Shown here one piece after another: positions 1-5,629 of a stretch of 56,715 nt of DNA. The position numbers and the translations under genes were made by a program. Within the stretch, counting starts at the first letter, position 1. Each line of letters starts with the position of its first letter. The notes under the pieces were generated by a model. The model was not told where the DNA came from and did not search any database. It worked only from the letters and a program-made list of their open reading frames with translations. The DNA is from a virus (lineage: Duplodnaviria; Heunggongvirae; Uroviricota; Caudoviricetes), in IMG/VR virus record IMGVR_UViG_2622736468_000005; one strand, written 5' to 3'.

Positions 1-558
1 ATGAATACAGCTATAACTTTTTTTAACGAGTCACCAAAAGTCTTTTTCAAAGATGGTCGCCTGGTTACCACCTCTCAAGCTGTTGCCGACTACTTCGATA
101 AACAACATAAACACGTTTTAGCTAAGATTGACACACTCGACTGCTCTCCCGAATTTACATCAGCCAACTTTTCGGCCGATGTTCAGACTGTCGAAATTGG
201 CAACGGCGCAGAACGTGAATCACGATGCTACCTGATCACAAAAGACGGCTTCATGTTCCTCGTAATGGGATTTACTGGCAAAAAAGCAGCCAGACTAAAA
301 GAAGCTTACATTGAAAAATTTAACGCAATGGAAGAAGAACTCCACAAACGTCCTCCTGCAGCACAAAACTCCCCCGCCCCAAATAATGGATGCGCATTAC
401 TGATCCACTTCGATAAACACGGTCAGGTCGAGTTCACAGAAAAAGTCCCCGCCGATGCGATGGTATGCACTCTGGAACGGTTTAAATTTTATCTGGAGCA
501 ACATGGGTGGATCGTTGCCCGTAAAGAACAATTGGTGGAAAGGTTGATGCGGTTTTAA
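1..558 (+). CDS. Rha-family phage regulatory protein (antirepressor-like)
   Basis: 185-aa ORF from track; N-terminal region resembles Rha/phage regulatory protein family; hairpin plus T-run terminator just downstream (~570-600). Starts at window edge so true start uncertain. Confidence 0.5.
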   Translation: MNTAITFFNESPKVFFKDGRLVTTSQAVADYFDKQHKHVLAKIDTLDCSPEFTSANFSADVQTVEIGNGAERESRCYLITKDGFMFLVMGFTGKKAARLKEAYIEKFNAMEEELHKRPPAAQNSPAPNNGCALLIHFDKHGQVEFTEKVPADAMVCTLERFKFYLEQHGWIVARKEQLVERLMRF

Positions 559-684
559 TGAATGCAAAACCCCGGATGATCACCGGGGTTAATTTTATCG
601 AGCGTGATTGCCGCTAATCGCCATCGCTCTGATTGAGCGTAAATCATTCAGGTTATTCAGTTCTTCCTTCTGCTCTCGCTGACG

Positions 685-831
685 TCAATAAATCCCATCA
701 TTGCGATCAACCTCATCCTTAACCATTGATGCGAGCAGTTCTTCCAGTTTCTGCGCTGACAGCTTTACCTGGTGATCTTCAGCATCTTCCCGGGCTATTG
801 TGGTTCGCGCAGTGGCTGATTTTGCTGACAT
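685..831 (-). CDS. hypothetical small protein (48 aa from internal Met of track ORF 685..966)
   Basis: Only the distal part of the 93-aa track ORF lies outside the tfa-remnant; weak RBS; no recognisable motif. Confidence 0.15.
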   Translation of the reverse strand: MSAKSATARTTIAREDAEDHQVKLSAQKLEELLASMVKDEVDRNDGIY

Positions 832-919
832 CACCACAGGGGGCAGACGGACCATTGAACCATGGCCTCCGGAACAAATAAGGGCAAAAATAACAACCAC
901 TATCGAAAGCTCACAAACT

Positions 920-1135
920 AACCGCAGCACGTTCCTGCATACGACGTGTCTGCGGCATAATCCCAATGATTACTCCCTGACAGGATTTGCAGGCCACTCA
1001 ATATCAGGTGCAGTTGATGTATCAACACGATTCAACAATACCCGATATTTATTCCATGCCTCCAGCAACGATCTTTCTTCCGCCGTTGCGATTTCCAGAT
1101 CTACAGCATCCTGCAGTGGCGCAATATACTCACTG
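920..1135. repeat. direct repeat copy 1 (~216 bp) of the 3' end of tfa plus its terminator hairpin
   Basis: Near-identical by eye to 1971..2187; contains imperfect hairpin ccgcagcacg...cgtgtctgcgg. Confidence 0.8.
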
Positions 1136-1146
1136 AATTCCTAGAT
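964..1146 (-). pseudogene. tail fibre assembly protein C-terminal remnant (tfa fragment, no start codon)
   Basis: Minus-strand translation [60 protein letters not shown] closely matches the C-terminus of Tfa at 2019..2603; an in-frame stop lies immediately upstream. Confidence 0.7.
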
Positions 1147-1295
1147 GTGGAACTGTGTGGTGACGGTCTTCCAGCCATTCGGCTCCTGCTGTATCGAAGC
1201 ATACCAGGCTATTTCAATATCGCTATGCTGCGGCAGCATTTAACCCCTTGTAATTCATCGCCATAATTGATTTAATTAACAAATAAAACTATAAC

Positions 1296-1964
1296 ATGGT
1301 GAAATTAATGAAAAAAAACACAGATGATGGGGCTAAAATTTACACACCACTTACCCTAAAGCTTTATGACTGGTGGGTTTTGGGAGTATCAAATCGGCTT
1401 GCATGGGGATGTCCTACAAAGGAACACCTTCTTCCACACTTTCTGGAACATTTAGGTAACAACCATCTGGATATTGGTGTTGGAACTGGGTTTTACCTTA
1501 CTCACGTACCTGAGAGTAGTCTGATATCTTTAATGGATTTGAACGAAGCTAGCCTGAACGCGGCATCTACAAGGGCTGGGGAATCAAAAATTAAACATAA
1601 AATTAGCCATGATGTTTTTGAACCTTATCCCGCGGCGTTACATGGTCAATTTGATTCCATTTCCATGTTTTACCTTCTTCACTGCCTGCCTGGAAATATA
1701 TCTACAAAAAGCTGTGTAATACGCAATGCGGCGCAGGCCTTAACTGACGATGGAACTCTATACGGAGCCACAATTCTTGGCGATGGAGTTGTGCACAATA
1801 GCTTCGGTCAAAAACTGATGCGCATTTACAATCAGAAAGGCATCTTTTCAAACACAAAAGATTCCGAAGAAGGCTTAACACATATACTCTCAGAGCATTT
1901 CGAGAATGTTAAAACCAAGGTTCAAGGTACTGTAGTAATGTTTTCCGCTTCAGGGAAAAAATAG
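1296..1964 (+). CDS. class I SAM-dependent methyltransferase (moron; substrate unknown)
   Basis: 222-aa ORF; glycine-rich motif I LDIGVGTGFY typical of Rossmann-fold SAM methyltransferases; gene is AT-rich relative to flanking tail genes and on the opposite strand. Confidence 0.6.
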   Translation: MVKLMKKNTDDGAKIYTPLTLKLYDWWVLGVSNRLAWGCPTKEHLLPHFLEHLGNNHLDIGVGTGFYLTHVPESSLISLMDLNEASLNAASTRAGESKIKHKISHDVFEPYPAALHGQFDSISMFYLLHCLPGNISTKSCVIRNAAQALTDDGTLYGATILGDGVVHNSFGQKLMRIYNQKGIFSNTKDSEEGLTHILSEHFENVKTKVQGTVVMFSASGKK

Positions 1965-1970
1965 CATCCA

Positions 1971-2187
1971 ACCGCAGCACGTTCTTGCTTAAGACGTGCT
2001 GCGGCATAATCCCAATGATTACTCCCTGACAGGGTTCGTAGGCCACTCAATATCAGGTGCAGTTGATGTATCAACACGGTTCAGCAACACCCGATACTTT
2101 TTCCAGGCTTCCAGCAATGAGGTTTCTTCCTCCGTTGCGATTTCCAGATCTACAGCATCCTGAAGTGGCGCAATATGCTCACTGGCT
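1971..2187. repeat. direct repeat copy 2 (3' end of intact tfa plus terminator hairpin)
   Basis: Matches 920..1135; perfect hairpin ccgcagcacg(ttcttgcttaaga)cgtgctgcgg immediately after tfa stop. Confidence 0.8.
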
Positions 2188-2603
2188 ACCTGCATCAGGC
2201 TGTTTTTTGTTTCTTCCGCCTCCCGGATCCGGAACAGTTTTTCTGCTTCCGTATCCTTCACCCAGGCTGTGCCGTTCCACTTCTGAAACTCCCCTTCCGG
2301 GGATAACCAGGTAACATTTTCCGGTAACGGACCGAGTTCAGAAATAAATAACGCGTCGCCGGAAGCCACGTCATAAACCGTTTTACCCCGATGATCTTCA
2401 ACGAGATGCCACGATGACTCATCACTGTTGAAAACGGCCACAAAGCCAGCCGGAATATCTGGCGGTGCAATATCGGTACTGTTTGCTGGCAGACCTGTAT
2501 GAGGCGGAATATATGCGTCACCTTCACCAATAAACTCATTGGTTCCAGCCAGTAGATTATAAATTTTTATGGTCCGTGATTGTTCACTCATTCTGAATAC
2601 CAT
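2019..2603 (-). CDS. tfa: tail fibre assembly protein (lambda Tfa-like chaperone)
   Basis: 194-aa ORF directly downstream of stf with overlapping start/stop (2603); position and size as in lambda stf-tfa. Confidence 0.8.
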
Positions 2604-5600
2604 TATGCAAGCCTCACAATATAGTTAAATGCGATGTTTTTGACGGTGTTTTCCGCGTTACCAGCAGCGTTAACGGTGATGGTGTGTCCATGTGAACCAA
2701 TCGCAACCGAGTGCGTATGCGCACCAATACCTACAGTATGTGCGTGTGCACCTGCGCTTGCAGCAGTACCCGATACAGAGTGCGTATGAGCGCCTGCAGA
2801 AGAAGTGTTAACACTGTATTTAGAATAATCAGGTGATCCACTTCCCGGAGCACCTTTGGTGCCACCTGAAACAAATGTTATCGAATGGGTATGTGCACCG
2901 GCTGAAGCAGCCGTACCGCTAACACTATGGGTATGCGCCCCGGTGTTATTCGTGGATTTAGTGCCGTAATCAAACGACGATGTGGTTTTCGTCCCCAAAT
3001 CCGTACTGGATGCGCTGGCGCTGTGGGTGTGCGATTTAATGCCGTCCTGTTCCTGAGACAATACGGCCCGACCACTGGCAGGTTTGCCCTTAATCGTCCA
3101 GCCACGCATATCAGGGATCACGCCTGACGGATAAGCGGCTGCAAGTTTCGGGTATGCAGATTTGTCAAAAGTCTGCCCCTGCATCAGGGCATAACCAGAC
3201 GGAACGGTATCTGATGGCCACGGGATTGGTGCGCCGACTGGGTAGCTTTCTGGTGGAAGATTTTTCGAGGTATAAACTTCTGCCCAGTCTTCCTCAAAAC
3301 CATAGCCATCTCTTGAGGAACGGTAGAACAGACCTCCATTTCTGTAATGCGCCTTCATCCGCAGGGTCCGGCAACTTCCGACTCCGGTATAGAAGTTAAC
3401 CAGAATATAGCTGTTGCCAGAGCGGGTGACATTGTAAGCGCCTGATTCGGCATTCCATGGAACGCCACCATCCGCATCGGCATATGTATCCGTTGCCCTT
3501 CTGGCAAAAGCAGCCACATGCGCGGCGGTTAAAGTAATATCTTTTGAACCATCAAACTCAACCCCAGAAACCCGTCTTGGCGTTTGCAGCTTTGTTGCTG
3601 TCAATGCGTTACCGTTCAGACTTGCAGACAGCTTGGTTCCAATAACCAGTTCGCCGGTTGCGTTATCAATAGCAAACGGTCTTAATGTATTCCATCCACC
3701 ATAAACATCACCTTGATTGGTAAGCAGCAGGTAAGTTTTAGCGCCATCATTACGCCATAATGCCCCATACTCCCCACCTATCATTCGAATCTGATTACCA
3801 CCACGCGCTACAATTTCGTCTGTGGCAAAAAGTTTTTTGCACGACAAGTTATCGTTAACGATTAACGAATGGGACTCATAAAAACCACGCCCACTCTTAA
3901 AATCAAGGATAACGTCCGCCGCGATACATTCAGTCGCCGGATTTGTTGCCCCAAACTTATAGGTCGTATCATTAACAACGAGATCAGCACCAGGTGCGGA
4001 TATTGACAGGCCATCTTCGATAAACGCAAAAACAGGGAAAGCAGCGCCATCAACATAGAACACAGAGCGCAAATCATCGCCCTTATTACTCATCATTATT
4101 GAGTGGATGGCTCGTTCATTGTTTTGATATTGCCAGAACATTCCATAAGCATAACGCCCCCTGTCAGTCCAGCCACCAGGCATAACAAATCCGTTAAACT
4201 CGCAGTTATTCATCGGATCGCCTGCGGTTCGCGTTGCCGTGGTGATAATGACCCTTGATGCCAGTTCGCTTACTGAGCCAGCAGAACGCATAACAACAAC
4301 AGGATAATATTTTCCAGATGTTGCACCTGCAGGAGCGTTAACCCGCACATAACGCATACCACGTTTATCAGCAAAGTCTGTTTTACTGACCGCGTTAATG
4401 TTGTTCAGGAAGCGTCCCTTATCGGGTATATCAGCGCCGTTCTGGTCTTTCTGCAGACGTTTCTCTGCATTGTCATAGGCTGCTTTTACTGCCTTTGGCG
4501 TTGCCGCCAGCGTTTCAGACGTGCTGTTGGTCGCGCTGCTGAGCTGTACTATCCCCTTTTTCGTCGTGCTCGCATCCTCAAGCGCCACGGCGGATGCAAT
4601 ATCCTCTGCCCGTTTTGCCGCTGTCTCGGCGCGCGTTGCCGCGGATTCCGCCGTACTTTTGCTCTGAGCTGCCGCCGTCGCACTGCCAGCTGCCTCTGTC
4701 GCCTTCGTGGATGCCGTCGTGGCGCTGCCCTTTGCTGCTGACGCCTGTCTGGTCGCCTCATCTTTTGAAGCAGACGCAGATGATGCCGATGACGCCGCCG
4801 AACTGGCGGACGATGCGGCAGCCGTTTTTGAGGATTCTGCGCTGGTTTCCGAGGCTTTCGCGTTCGTTTCGGATGTCTTCGCTGCCTCTTTTGAGGCCGC
4901 CGCATCCCGTGCTGAAGTGGCTGCTTCTGACGCTTTCGTGGTCGCGGTGGATGCAGAAGTGGCTGCTGATTGTTGTGACGCTGCCGCATTCGTTTCTGAC
5001 GTTTTCGCCGCACCGGCACTGGTAGCCGCCGCGCTTTTTGAGGACTCTGCAGCGGCAGCACTTTTTGATGTTTCAGTAGCCTTTGTTGATGCCGTTCCTG
5101 CGCTGGAAGACGCTGACTGAGCCGACATCGCGGCCTGCCCGGCTGATGTGCTGGCTGCACGTGCTGAGCCTGCAGCATCAGTCGCATGGGTTGCCGCCTC
5201 ACTGGCAGATATGCTGGCATCGCTGGCTGACTTCTTCGCGGCTGCCGTGTTCTGTGCCACCGCGGACGCGTTACGCGCCACCTCTTCCACCATCAGTTCA
5301 AAACGGCGCAGTGCCTCAGGACGGGCATCATCCTCCGTCATGGCACCGAGAAAATCATTCAGCGTACCTGGTCTGGAACCTTCATAGACGGTAATGGTCC
5401 CGGCATGTGAAGGCGGAAAACCTTCAACCAGCAGGGTGACGCTGTACTGACCATGCTCAACATCCATGCTGTAACGTCCGGCTTCATCCGGATTTTCAGA
5501 GGCCACCGTGTTCACCACCACCGTGCTGCTGGTTCGTCTGGCCTTCAGCACAATGGTGCAGTTCTGTACTGGTTTTCCTGTGCCATCTTTAAGCACGCCA

Positions 5601-5629
5601 GAAATTTTTACTGTCATACTTTCCACCAA
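2603..5629 (-). CDS. stf: side tail fibre protein (lambda Stf-like)
   Basis: 1008-aa ORF; N-terminus [26 protein letters not shown]... and C-terminus ...[31 protein letters not shown] match lambda Stf as I recall it; central Ala/Ser/Thr-rich low-complexity region. Confidence 0.85.

Follow-up and report, generated by a model that had tools for sequence, protein, structure and literature searches.

From moron capture to a direct repeat: a proposed origin of the tfa–ybcY–tfaX arrangement in a lambdoid prophage

How did a methyltransferase gene come to lie, on the opposite strand, between an intact tail fibre assembly gene (tfa) and a second copy of the 3' end of that same gene? The question is raised by one end of a 56,715-nucleotide stretch of DNA (IMG/VR virus record IMGVR_UViG_2622736468_000005, Caudoviricetes), which we refer to as the window. 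An original prediction for this locus offered two answers: homologous recombination between the tail-fibre modules of two phages, which brought in the methyltransferase gene, or serial insertion of morons at the tfa terminator. The features of the locus are collected in Table 1.

Table 1. Features at and around the tfa repeat (positions in the window; a dot marks features given without a strand).
Feature	Position	Strand	Description and basis
rha-family regulator gene	1..558	+	Pfam Phage_pRha E 3.4e-27; context in L001
GC-rich hairpin with T-run	568..590	.	Terminator-like, between converging rha and remnant; terminator scan
Tail-fibre gene remnant	595..873	-	C-terminal piece of a different gene, internal stop
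Repeat copy A	920..1142	.	Remnant of the tfa 3' end with hairpin
Hairpin A	922..955	.	RNAfold -24.1 kcal/mol on the minus strand; alignment
tfaX pseudogene	970..1239	-	Chimeric ORF; translations, Caudo_TAP, PHROGs
AT-rich divergent ybcY/tfaX spacer	1240..1295	.	TTGATT-17-TATAAC at 1267-1295; consensus-like site at 1240-1267
ybcY	1296..1964	+	Intact class I SAM-dependent methyltransferase moron; 222-aa ORF
Repeat copy B	1970..2191	.	Last 57 tfa codons and 49 bp downstream; recombination breakpoint zone
Hairpin B	1972..2004	.	RNAfold -28.5 kcal/mol on the minus strand, -23.9 on the plus strand
tfa	2019..2603	-	Intact lambda-type tail fibre assembly gene, 194 aa; ORF list

The direct repeat is far above chance. 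When the window was compared with itself by blastn, the two copies matched over 216 bp with 90.7% identity (E ~1e-82), and no third copy was found elsewhere in the 56.7 kb. A repeat search paired 950-1142 with 1999-2191 and 920-948 with 1970-1998, each at 90% identity and with a 1-bp indel between them, and in a global alignment of copy A with copy B 200 of the 223 columns (89.7%) were identical. Since the homology ends at about 1142 in copy A and 2191 in copy B, the repeat that had been placed at 920..1135 and 1971..2187 is present, although its ends have to be moved. Each copy consists of the last 56-57 codons of tfa and a stable hairpin, both are in direct orientation and retain the same reading frame, and between them, on the opposite strand, lies an intact gene for a class I SAM methyltransferase. 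The self-alignment proposed as a check on the similarity of the copies was thus significant at the nucleotide level, and the predicted layout, a duplicated tfa 3' end and hairpin around an AT-richer opposite-strand methyltransferase gene, was confirmed.

Copy B belongs to an intact gene, as had also been predicted. The product of tfa is a full-length tail fibre assembly protein that matches Pfam Caudo_TAP (PF02413) over positions 1-130 of the 131-position profile (E 3.5e-45); a homologue is annotated as tail fiber assembly protein by PGAP, and the gene abuts the side tail fibre gene stf (2603-5629). The Rfam model IS009 (RF02111; gathering score 117) is matched in full by 2062-2260, which covers copy B and adjoining tfa sequence (229 bits), and the copy A region 1013-1216 falls below the gathering score with 105.8 bits; for comparison, the 3' end of K-12 tfaD scores 227.8 bits. 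These matches lie within tfa-derived coding sequence on the coding strand, and we rejected a separate sRNA at this site because the matched sequence is tfa coding sequence. IS009 is also among the Rfam hits excluded in an earlier study for which ribosome footprints were expected, one reason being a same-strand location inside a gene (PMC5331693).

The hairpin is present in both copies and stable on the tfa strand in each, in agreement with the prediction. Hairpin B starts 8 nt past the ybcY stop codon and 15 nt past that of tfa; hairpins A and B differ by one bulged stem base, the remaining differences lying within the loop. Neither is directly followed by a U-tract. For hairpin B, no adjacent U-tract was found on either strand and the terminator scan did not report it, and for hairpin A its only call was a weak stem of 5 pairs followed by a weak T-rich tail. 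Both hairpins are therefore no more than candidate terminators.

The open reading frame between the copies is intact, as predicted, and its product matches Methyltransf_12 with E 3.8e-9; Methyltransf_12, _23, _25 and _11 all exceed the Pfam cutoffs. The true start is probably the ATG at 1308, which would give a protein of 218 aa: residues 5-222 align to positions 1-218 of the phrog_2132 profile, and M5 is invariant in 28 homologues. The protein carries a glycine-rich motif I (DIGVGTG), and its AF2 model (pLDDT 87.4) consists of alternating strands and helices. Foldseek returned 1336 PDB matches at E<=0.001, and methyltransferases dominate the top 50. Motif I together with the predicted Rossmann-type fold identifies YbcY as a class I SAM-dependent methyltransferase.

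With respect to its substrate, the best structural matches of YbcY are small-molecule and lipid methyltransferases (E 1e-11 to 1e-10, TM 0.54-0.66). The first is a bacterial phosphatidylethanolamine N-methyltransferase (PDB 8ys9, TM 0.62-0.65), with which YbcY shares the Rossmann methyltransferase fold and a similar size, as it does with JHAMT, UbiG and a phosphoethanolamine methyltransferase; sequence identity to 8ys9 and other small-molecule class I methyltransferases, however, is only 13-21%, and a PDB sequence search found JHAMT and UbiG as weak matches (E ~1e-3). In view of this resemblance, a small molecule or a lipid is the most likely target of YbcY in the lysogen. The HMM search that had been recommended for classifying the substrate did not yield a specific class, given that no family-level HMM matched and the best NCBIfam score was 17 bits against cutoffs of 175-180 (sub-threshold CpaM and RquA). 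It did speak against a DNA methyltransferase, because no Pfam family of such enzymes matched at E<=0.01. Furthermore, motif IV, (D/N/S)PP(Y/F/W/H), and the PC dipeptide are both absent, and no DNA methyltransferase appears among the 50 best structural matches listed, most of which act on small molecules or lipids. On these grounds we rejected an N6/N4 or C5 DNA methyltransferase. A role as a defence component was rejected as well, as the only PADLOC match, to mad2 (E 0.0033, 14.3 bits), covers the generic core of methyltransferases.

The ybcY gene has a GC content of 40.8% (GC3 35.9%), against 48.2% for tfa (GC3 45.6%) and 51.6% for the window. The gene is thus of lower GC, as had been stated, although "much lower" is too strong; as is typical of a moron, it differs in base composition from the surrounding phage genes. 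In Salmonella and Enterobacter, homologues with 57-66% identity lie on the chromosome as monocistronic genes, and their neighbours there are unrelated housekeeping genes that give no hint of a substrate. In K-12 ybcY is a pseudogene, and in Ayreon it is internally deleted, with only its last 41 bp kept; the gene appears to be dispensable for the phage, and the unit to behave as a dispensable moron. For ybcY, our literature search found mentions of the locus and no functional study. In the spacer towards tfaX, a promoter scan found TTAACC-16-CATAAT, which agrees with the promoter consensus at 9 of 12 positions and is not above shuffle expectation. An in vitro survey of RNA polymerase binding in K-12 gives identical hexamers for the ybcY<HNS>tfaX spacer, which it lists as a binding site of the RpoD holoenzyme with H-NS (PMC3946193).

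On the other side of this spacer, the downstream copy had been described as start-less. This is not the case: it has an ATG (1239-1237), preceded by an SD-like AAGGGG, and is part of the known tfaX ORF, which is open in relatives and is interrupted here by a lineage-specific TAG. Codons 1-32 (1144-1239) derive from a small unrelated phage gene, codon 33 (1141-1143) is TAG in the window and CAG in the related prophage L001, K-12, PhiR26_1 and 2G7b, and codons 34-89 (973-1140) encode the Tfa C-terminus in frame. The chimeric nature of the ORF is reflected in its profile matches. The Tfa C-terminus encoded by copy A matches Caudo_TAP positions 80-130 (E 1.6e-24), and within the tfaX ORF the match covers positions 75-130 and begins at residue 31; phrog_3893 is matched by residues 3-37 and phrog_2341 over the full length (E 1.4e-60). 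Residues 1-32 resemble the N-termini of unrelated small proteins, with 75% identity in Ayreon, 54.5% in a 79-aa ORF of a Klebsiella phage and 39% in HK225_029. Because only profile positions 75-130 match, the N-terminus is of the phrog_3893 type and a TAG interrupts the frame, tfaX is a fragment and not a full-length member of Caudo_TAP. Its left junction, at about 1142/1143, is by alignment an in-frame, non-homologous join to 32 codons of phrog_3893 type, and homologous recombination cannot have made a join of this kind to an unrelated gene.

By gene order and sequence similarity the locus is already known as the tfaD–ybcY–tfaX layout of the DLP12 cryptic prophage of E. coli K-12 (NC_000913.3, b0561-b0563), annotated as tfaD (+), ybcY (-, pseudogene) and tfaX (+), followed by appY and ompT. 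The same three elements occur in the same order and orientation, with 96.9% identity over window positions 993-2457 (1465 bp), and the N-terminus of K-12 TfaX is identical to that of the window except for Y31H. The two loci differ in their state of preservation. In K-12, besides the defect in ybcY, tfaX stops after 61 aa and is followed by appY and ompT, and hence the repeat is only ~157 bp long and lacks the hairpin. In the window, on the other hand, ybcY is intact, and with the whole Tfa C-terminus and the hairpin retained in tfaX the repeat extends over 223 bp, although a nonsense codon interrupts the ORF; a second tail-fibre remnant and rha take the place of appY and ompT downstream. The window shares 1015-2789 with PhiR26_1 (97.4% identity) and 1015-2138 with 2G7b (98.8%), the right side of 2G7b also being a mere tfa remnant, behind a different tail fibre. 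Since the core 1015-2138 is common to DLP12, PhiR26_1 and 2G7b at 97-99%, the founding event did not take place within this prophage. YbcY, intact in the window, is very common in E. coli: the methyltransferase segment was found in 3836 of 5426 complete genomes (71%), as well as in several lambdoid phage records, and ybcY loci were counted at 4882 places.

A comparison with related prophages had been advised as a way to the ancestral arrangement, and it showed that the unit is present or absent at a single location. L001, which has the unit, and L012, which does not, carry the same prophage at ompW, with flanks that are 99.6-99.8% identical, and differ by 1050 bp. In L011, L012 and L013 tfa is followed by the hairpin, the tail-fibre remnant and rha with no unit between them, so that ybcY, like a moron, is inserted between sequences that are adjacent in these three. 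Their single repeat follows copy A as far as 1029 and copy B from 1030 onwards, which places the switch within a 39-bp block (991-1029) that is the same in both copies. This difference may be a deletion from a unit-bearing prophage or an insertion into a unit-less one. Other breaks lie inside the tfa 3' block: homology to the window ends at 2138 in 2G7b and at 2164 in Ayreon, and divergence between the window and L001 rises from 0.4% to 5.4% at 2139. The repeat has thus come to serve as homology for recombination.

We believe, with a probability of about 80%, that the region is a lambdoid tfa–ybcY–tfaX arrangement that arose by capture of a moron, a non-homologous crossover and later repeat-mediated exchange. 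In the first step, a stand-alone enterobacterial methyltransferase gene, ybcY, would have been acquired as a moron just past the tfa hairpin, antisense to the late operon and beside a small divergent phage gene. In the second, suggested by the observed junction, an old, unequal and non-homologous crossover between two lambdoid genomes would have joined codon 32 of the small gene to tfa of the other phage about 57 codons before its end; the formation of the chimeric tfaX would at the same time have left the tfa 3' end and its hairpin in two direct copies. We propose that the recombinant survived because a complete stf–tfa module was kept upstream. In the third step, which the genome comparisons show, the repeat and the conserved tfa 3' block provided homology for later exchanges, leaving differing tail-fibre modules upstream, differing cargo downstream, and the 1050-bp unit present or absent in otherwise identical prophages; in the window, tfaX has additionally been killed by the nonsense codon. 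No genome with the pre-fusion layout (tfa–hairpin–ybcY–intact small gene) was found, and the first two steps are accordingly reconstructions: the small gene occurs in the Klebsiella phage and in HK225, both of which lack ybcY, and no ORF of this kind lies upstream of the chromosomal ybcY homologues. As to the two answers offered originally, recombination between the tail-fibre regions of two phages is retained, although the left join shows that it was not homologous, and serial moron insertion at the tfa terminator is not supported, as duplication plus insertion would not predict an in-frame foreign fusion.

Spelled out in full, this second answer is a tandem duplication of the tfa 3' end in situ, by slippage or unequal sister exchange, followed by insertion of the methyltransferase gene between the two copies. 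In its favour, the unique segment ends on the right 5 bp past the ybcY stop codon, directly at the tfa hairpin, which is a typical moron position, and the direct orientation and common frame of the copies would follow naturally. However, an in-frame fusion to a foreign small gene is not expected at the left edge, and the copies differ by 10% while the unit is 97-99% identical in unrelated prophages and phages, from which it follows that the duplication predates this prophage. We regard an in situ origin as highly improbable. We also think it improbable, if somewhat less so, that tfaX is a functional small protein (phrog_2341, 88-89 aa) in which a new N-terminus was added to the Tfa C-terminus and which is selected together with ybcY as a divergent module. 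Its full-length PHROG match, its SD-like sequence, the 9 synonymous against 7 non-synonymous codon differences between the copies, and an ORF that is intact in L001 (89 aa) and occurs on at least 1000 contigs would all fit a working gene. On the other hand, the Tfa part is disrupted in four of the five lineages compared: it is truncated in K-12, where the ORF stops after 61 aa, frameshifted in 2G7b by the loss of 7 bp, replaced in PhiR26_1 by a foreign C-terminus, and stopped in the window by the nonsense codon. In addition, PGAP treats tfaX as a pseudogene, and Ayreon retains the 32 N-terminal codons without any Tfa part. Because the Tfa part has been altered differently in each sampled lineage, it is better read as a scar than as a conserved gene.

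A more serious alternative, although one we consider unlikely, is that the unit-less state is ancestral and that the unit entered the ompW prophage by a crossover between a donor tfaX and the resident tfa 3' end, so that the left 95 bp of copy A and the hairpin would be resident. The similarity of the window to the tfaX copies of K-12, PhiR26_1 and 2G7b stops on the left at 993-1015, close to the switch at 990-1030, and over the left flank (1-1029) the window is ~99.8% identical to the unit-less L011 and L012. Yet a donor of the PhiR26_1 or 2G7b type would have offered only 15 bp of identity for such a crossover (1015-1029), and one of the K-12 type at most 19 bp, as this allele differs from copy A from 1012. 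Moreover, divergence between A and B is even, with 7 differences in the 95 bp on the left and 13 in the 128 bp on the right, which fits a single contiguous old fragment; single-piece unit-less matches make up 3 of the 40 best-matching records, against 377 records with the unit-bearing layout. The repeat of L012 is also telling: its right part shares the private variants 1090A, 1103G and 1117C with copy B of L001, and it has copy-A-type bases at 1051 and 1057 inside a B-type stretch, as would be left by patchy mismatch repair after a crossover between A and B. The 39-bp block, finally, is the longest run of identity and also the expected site of a deletion crossover.

Under the origin we favour, the locus would be a clear example of lambdoid phage evolution, in which a repeat that arose by a non-homologous join is reused by homologous recombination for the exchange of tail-fibre modules and the loss or gain of cargo. 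A bolder and doubtful extension is that the duplicated tfa 3' end provides homology arms for the ybcY moron, through which ordinary homologous recombination could bring the 1-kb unit into, or remove it from, any lambdoid phage whose tfa is of the lambda type, and that it acts as a hinge for tail-fibre swaps. If true, such arms would help explain the abundance of the methyltransferase segment in E. coli.

The moron concept reportedly comes from the comparative genomics of HK97 and HK022 by Juhala et al. in 2000. Like the lambdoid morons, ybcY is an extra gene that separates genes adjoining each other in relatives, with a lower GC content, a putative promoter of its own and a hairpin beside it, and apparently dispensable; unlike them, it is bracketed by a duplicated piece of a neighbouring gene, which makes gain or loss by homologous recombination possible. 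Tail-fibre mosaicism and tfa remnants are also familiar from cryptic prophages, and invertible tail-fibre segments from Mu, P1 and e14. As in these, conserved C-terminal sequences of Tfa and tail fibres appear to act as crossover sites and partial tfa genes remain, but in contrast to Mu, P1 and e14 the copies are direct, not inverted, and no invertase or crossover sites are involved. In the literature searched on morons, tail fibre assembly and methyltransferases, we found nothing on the tfa–ybcY–tfaX arrangement.

For annotation, these results imply that the downstream tfa fragment should be named tfaX (a pseudogene here) and the methyltransferase gene ybcY, with its probable start at 1308, and that 595-873 be recorded as an older tail-fibre scar. 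Further left, rha belongs to the resident right-end segment of the prophage, which adjoins the ompW attachment site in relatives. The 595-873 remnant was assigned to a tail fibre on the basis of tblastn, PHROGs and PGAP: it is 58-68% identical to the C-termini of the tail fibres of SerU-LTIIb, Rac-SA53 and phiP27 and matches phrog_7703 (E 1.1e-24) and phrog_1141 (tail fiber protein, E 1.6e-20), and its translation has no Pfam match, DUF4376 included. Its equivalent in L001, L011, L012 and L013 is annotated by PGAP as [quoted passage not shown]. This remnant had not been described in the original prediction.

The 3' end of tfa, the tail fibre assembly gene, is present twice in direct orientation, around a methyltransferase gene (ybcY) on the opposite strand. 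This is what the original prediction described, and repeat search, blastn and global alignment all bear it out. The repeat search of the window returned two direct repeats of 90% identity, one of 193 nt (950-1142 versus 1999-2191) and one of 29 nt (920-948 versus 1970-1998), offset from each other by a 1-bp indel. A blastn comparison of the repeat region with the whole window recovered the second copy over 216 bp at 90.7% (E about 1e-82), and no third copy. In a global alignment, the downstream copy (copy A) and the copy at intact tfa (copy B) are identical in 200 of 223 columns, with the divergence evenly spread over the repeat. The predicted coordinates need only a small correction, because the similarity reaches about 1142/2191 before it stops. 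Copy B consists of the last 57 codons of tfa plus 49 bp downstream, and copy A encodes the C-terminal peptide of tfa in frame.

Features of the tfa-ybcY region and the evidence on which they are assigned
Feature	Position	Strand	Evidence
tfa, tail fibre assembly gene, intact, 194 aa	2019-2603	minus	Caudo_TAP, E 3.5e-45
ybcY, methyltransferase ORF, intact, between the copies	1296-1964	plus	Methyltransf_12, E 3.8e-9
Broken C-terminal fragment, from another tail fibre protein or assembly protein, internal stop	595-873	minus	PGAP, translation matches, PHROGs

Two details of that description had to be reworded. The GC content of ybcY (40.8%) is indeed lower, but compared with tfa (48.2%) and the window (51.6%) "much lower" was too strong. 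Likewise, the hairpins at the downstream ends of both copies are stable (tfa strand: -28.5 kcal/mol for copy B and -24.1 kcal/mol for copy A), but neither has an adjacent U-tract, and all that a terminator scan picked up was one weak stem of 5 pairs, in copy A, so that both are at most putative terminators. A 45-aa ORF open in the window at 1909-2046 (minus strand) looks spurious; its equivalent in the close relative L001, which overlaps the 3' ends of ybcY and tfa as well as the hairpin, is annotated by PGAP as a "hypothetical protein" (WP_001309429.1). The Rfam family IS009 (RF02111) matches the minus strand at 2062-2260 in the region of copy B (229 bits) and, below threshold, at 1013-1216 in that of copy A (105.8 bits), as well as the 3' end of K-12 tfaD. 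What the family matches here is tfa coding sequence, on its coding strand, and this adds nothing in favour of a separate RNA, which we rejected; the family appears to have been built on tfa coding sequence and not on a free-standing RNA.

The tfa-ybcY-tfaX arrangement is not new: the annotations of K-12 and of thousands of genomes already include it. The cryptic prophage DLP12 of K-12 has the same layout, tfaD (+), ybcY (-, pseudogene) and tfaX (+), followed by appY and ompT, and matches window positions 993-2457 at 96.9%. At least 80% of window 560-2700 is carried by 377 of the 5426 complete E. coli genomes; the NCBI pipeline gives the order tail fibre, tail fiber assembly protein, class I SAM-dependent methyltransferase, partial tail fiber assembly pseudogene and DUF4376 pseudogene, and in relatives the prophage has trpA-yciGFE and a truncated ompW as its neighbours. 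Taken by itself, the methyltransferase segment (1243-1969) occurs in 3836 of these 5426 genomes, at up to four places in each, and, at 99.2-99.6%, in lambdoid phage genome records such as 2G7b, ev243, PhiR26_1, Turner and Kati.

The view that the downstream copy is a remnant without a start does not hold, since it belongs to an ORF, tfaX, with its own ATG (1239-1237) and AAGGGG upstream. This ORF is open in K-12 (61 aa), PhiR26_1 (101 aa) and L001 (89 aa); codon 33 is TAG in the window (1143-1141) and CAG in all other sequences compared, and two more window-specific substitutions, at 1082 and 1149, lie nearby. The three fall within 68 bp, while in the rest of 1-2138 the window departs from its closest relative at only five other positions; the cluster could be a small conversion patch or due to chance. 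In TfaX, the Caudo_TAP match begins only at residue 31, and residues 1-32 resemble the N-termini of small phage proteins unrelated to Tfa: a 32-codon ORF of phage Ayreon (75%), a 79-aa ORF of Klebsiella phage Kp4882-3 (54.5%) and HK225_029 (39%; 99 aa, with dinI and an invertase as neighbours). They also match PHROG family phrog_3893. TfaX is therefore a chimera of a small phage gene and, fused to it with the frame preserved, roughly the last 57 codons of a tfa, and the left end of the repeat is a non-homologous junction.

The window, L001, PhiR26_1 and 2G7b have a core in common (1015-2138, 97-99%), outside which their sequences differ. On the left, downstream side, homology ends at 993 in K-12 and at 1015 in PhiR26_1 and 2G7b, where appY or an alpha/beta hydrolase gene follows, together with ompT. 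On the right, upstream side, homology to 2G7b stops at 2138; that phage has another tail fibre, and its ybcY therefore lies between two remnants; homology with Ayreon is lost at 2164. Between the window and L001 there are 8 mismatches over 1-2138 and 36 over 2139-2800, the divergence rising from 0.4% to 5.4% at 2139, inside the tfa 3' block. The tfa 5' part and the stf 3' end of the window therefore stem from a different allele, by a separate tail-fibre exchange, and with changes at 2138, 2164 and 2139 the conserved tfa 3' block is where breakpoints cluster. In Ayreon the unit is decayed (L014 3474-3831): what is left is a tfa 3' remnant, the hairpin, 41 bp from the end of ybcY and the small 32-codon ORF; 659 bp of ybcY are deleted, at a junction with almost no microhomology.

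A synthetic deletion product (window 600-1142 joined to 2192-2603) had single-piece, full-length matches in strains EC15, NMBU-W13E19 and PigCaeca_2. These carry the same ompW prophage, in which tfa is followed directly by the hairpin of copy A and an older remnant, and ybcY is absent. The NMBU-W13E19 record is 99.6-99.8% identical to L001 on both sides of a 1050-bp difference, which corresponds to the ybcY-bearing unit. The single repeat of the three strains equals copy A up to 1029 (with one private substitution in EC15) and is copy-B-like from 1030, placing the switch within 991-1029, the longest run of perfect A/B identity (39 bp). NMBU-W13E19 has private variants in common with copy B of L001 (1090A, 1103G and 1117C), and a short A-type patch (1051, 1057) amid B-type sequence. 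The older remnant is followed by rha in EC15 and NMBU-W13E19, not in PigCaeca_2, where ash and rha are missing between ompW' and the tail-fibre remnant (L013 3772-4001), a further deletion at the prophage end.

We interpret the presence or absence of the unit as the outcome of a deletion in which the repeats recombined and mismatch repair was patchy. The reverse reaction, insertion of the unit into a prophage lacking it, we consider less likely, because only 3 of the 40 best-matching records lack the unit while 377 have the unit-bearing layout, because a donor of the K-12 or PhiR26_1 type offers only 15-19 bp of identity, and because divergence between the copies is even. Whether by deletion or by insertion, the repeat is a recombination substrate.

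From the observed junction, shared core, clustered breakpoints and presence/absence pair, a history in three steps is best supported, in which the order of the earliest events is one that we infer. A bacterial methyltransferase gene would have entered as a moron just past the hairpin of tfa; two lambdoid genomes would then have undergone an unequal, non-homologous crossover that fused the neighbouring small gene to the tfa 3' end of the other phage, creating both tfaX and the direct repeat; and the repeat and the conserved tfa 3' block have since been reused repeatedly for homologous exchange and unit loss. Homologous recombination between phages or serial insertion had been proposed; recombination between phages is retained, but the founding join was non-homologous and an earlier event, outside this prophage.

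YbcY has motif I (DIGVGTG); of the motifs of DNA methyltransferases, it has neither the DPPY type nor PC. Its Pfam matches are to generic class I families only, with no family-level match in NCBIfam and no meaningful defence match in PADLOC. It belongs to phrog_2132 (function unknown), whose 218-residue profile begins at M5 of the ORF. As 28 homologues all keep M5, translation probably starts at ATG 1308, which would make the ORF from 1296 four codons too long. A list of RpoD holoenzyme binding sites (PMC3946193) includes the K-12 ybcY/tfaX spacer, with an H-NS mark and the hexamers TTGATT-17-TATAAC, which are present at window 1267-1295; as they end at 1295, ATG 1296 would be upstream of the point where the transcript probably begins. 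Confidence in the AlphaFold model is high (pLDDT 87.4), and the best PDB matches of the model include a bacterial phosphatidylethanolamine N-methyltransferase (8ys9, TM 0.62-0.65, 16% identity) and juvenile hormone acid, phosphoethanolamine and natural-product methyltransferases. Salmonella and Enterobacter have homologues of 57-66% identity on the chromosome, each a single gene standing by itself among unrelated housekeeping genes, which fits capture of ybcY from a bacterial chromosome. A literature search found no functional study of ybcY, and we provisionally assign its product as a putative methyltransferase of small molecules or lipids, which the lysogen would express and the phage could do without.

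Left of copy A, between the tfaX remnant and rha, lies a third tail-fibre-related fragment, and the prophage end therefore carries a stack of tail-fibre scars. PGAP labels this piece a DUF4376 pseudogene; its translation has no Pfam match, resembles the tail fibre C-termini of SerU-LTIIb, Rac-SA53 and phiP27 (58-68%), and matches phrog_7703 and phrog_1141. On the other side of tfa, the side tail fibre gene (2603-5629, minus strand) has a long stretch rich in Ala, Ser and Thr and high in GC (up to 0.645) and, near its C-terminus, repeated GAHTHS-type His-rich motifs (repeat family D4), its notable stretches being 2700-2900 and 4500-5300.
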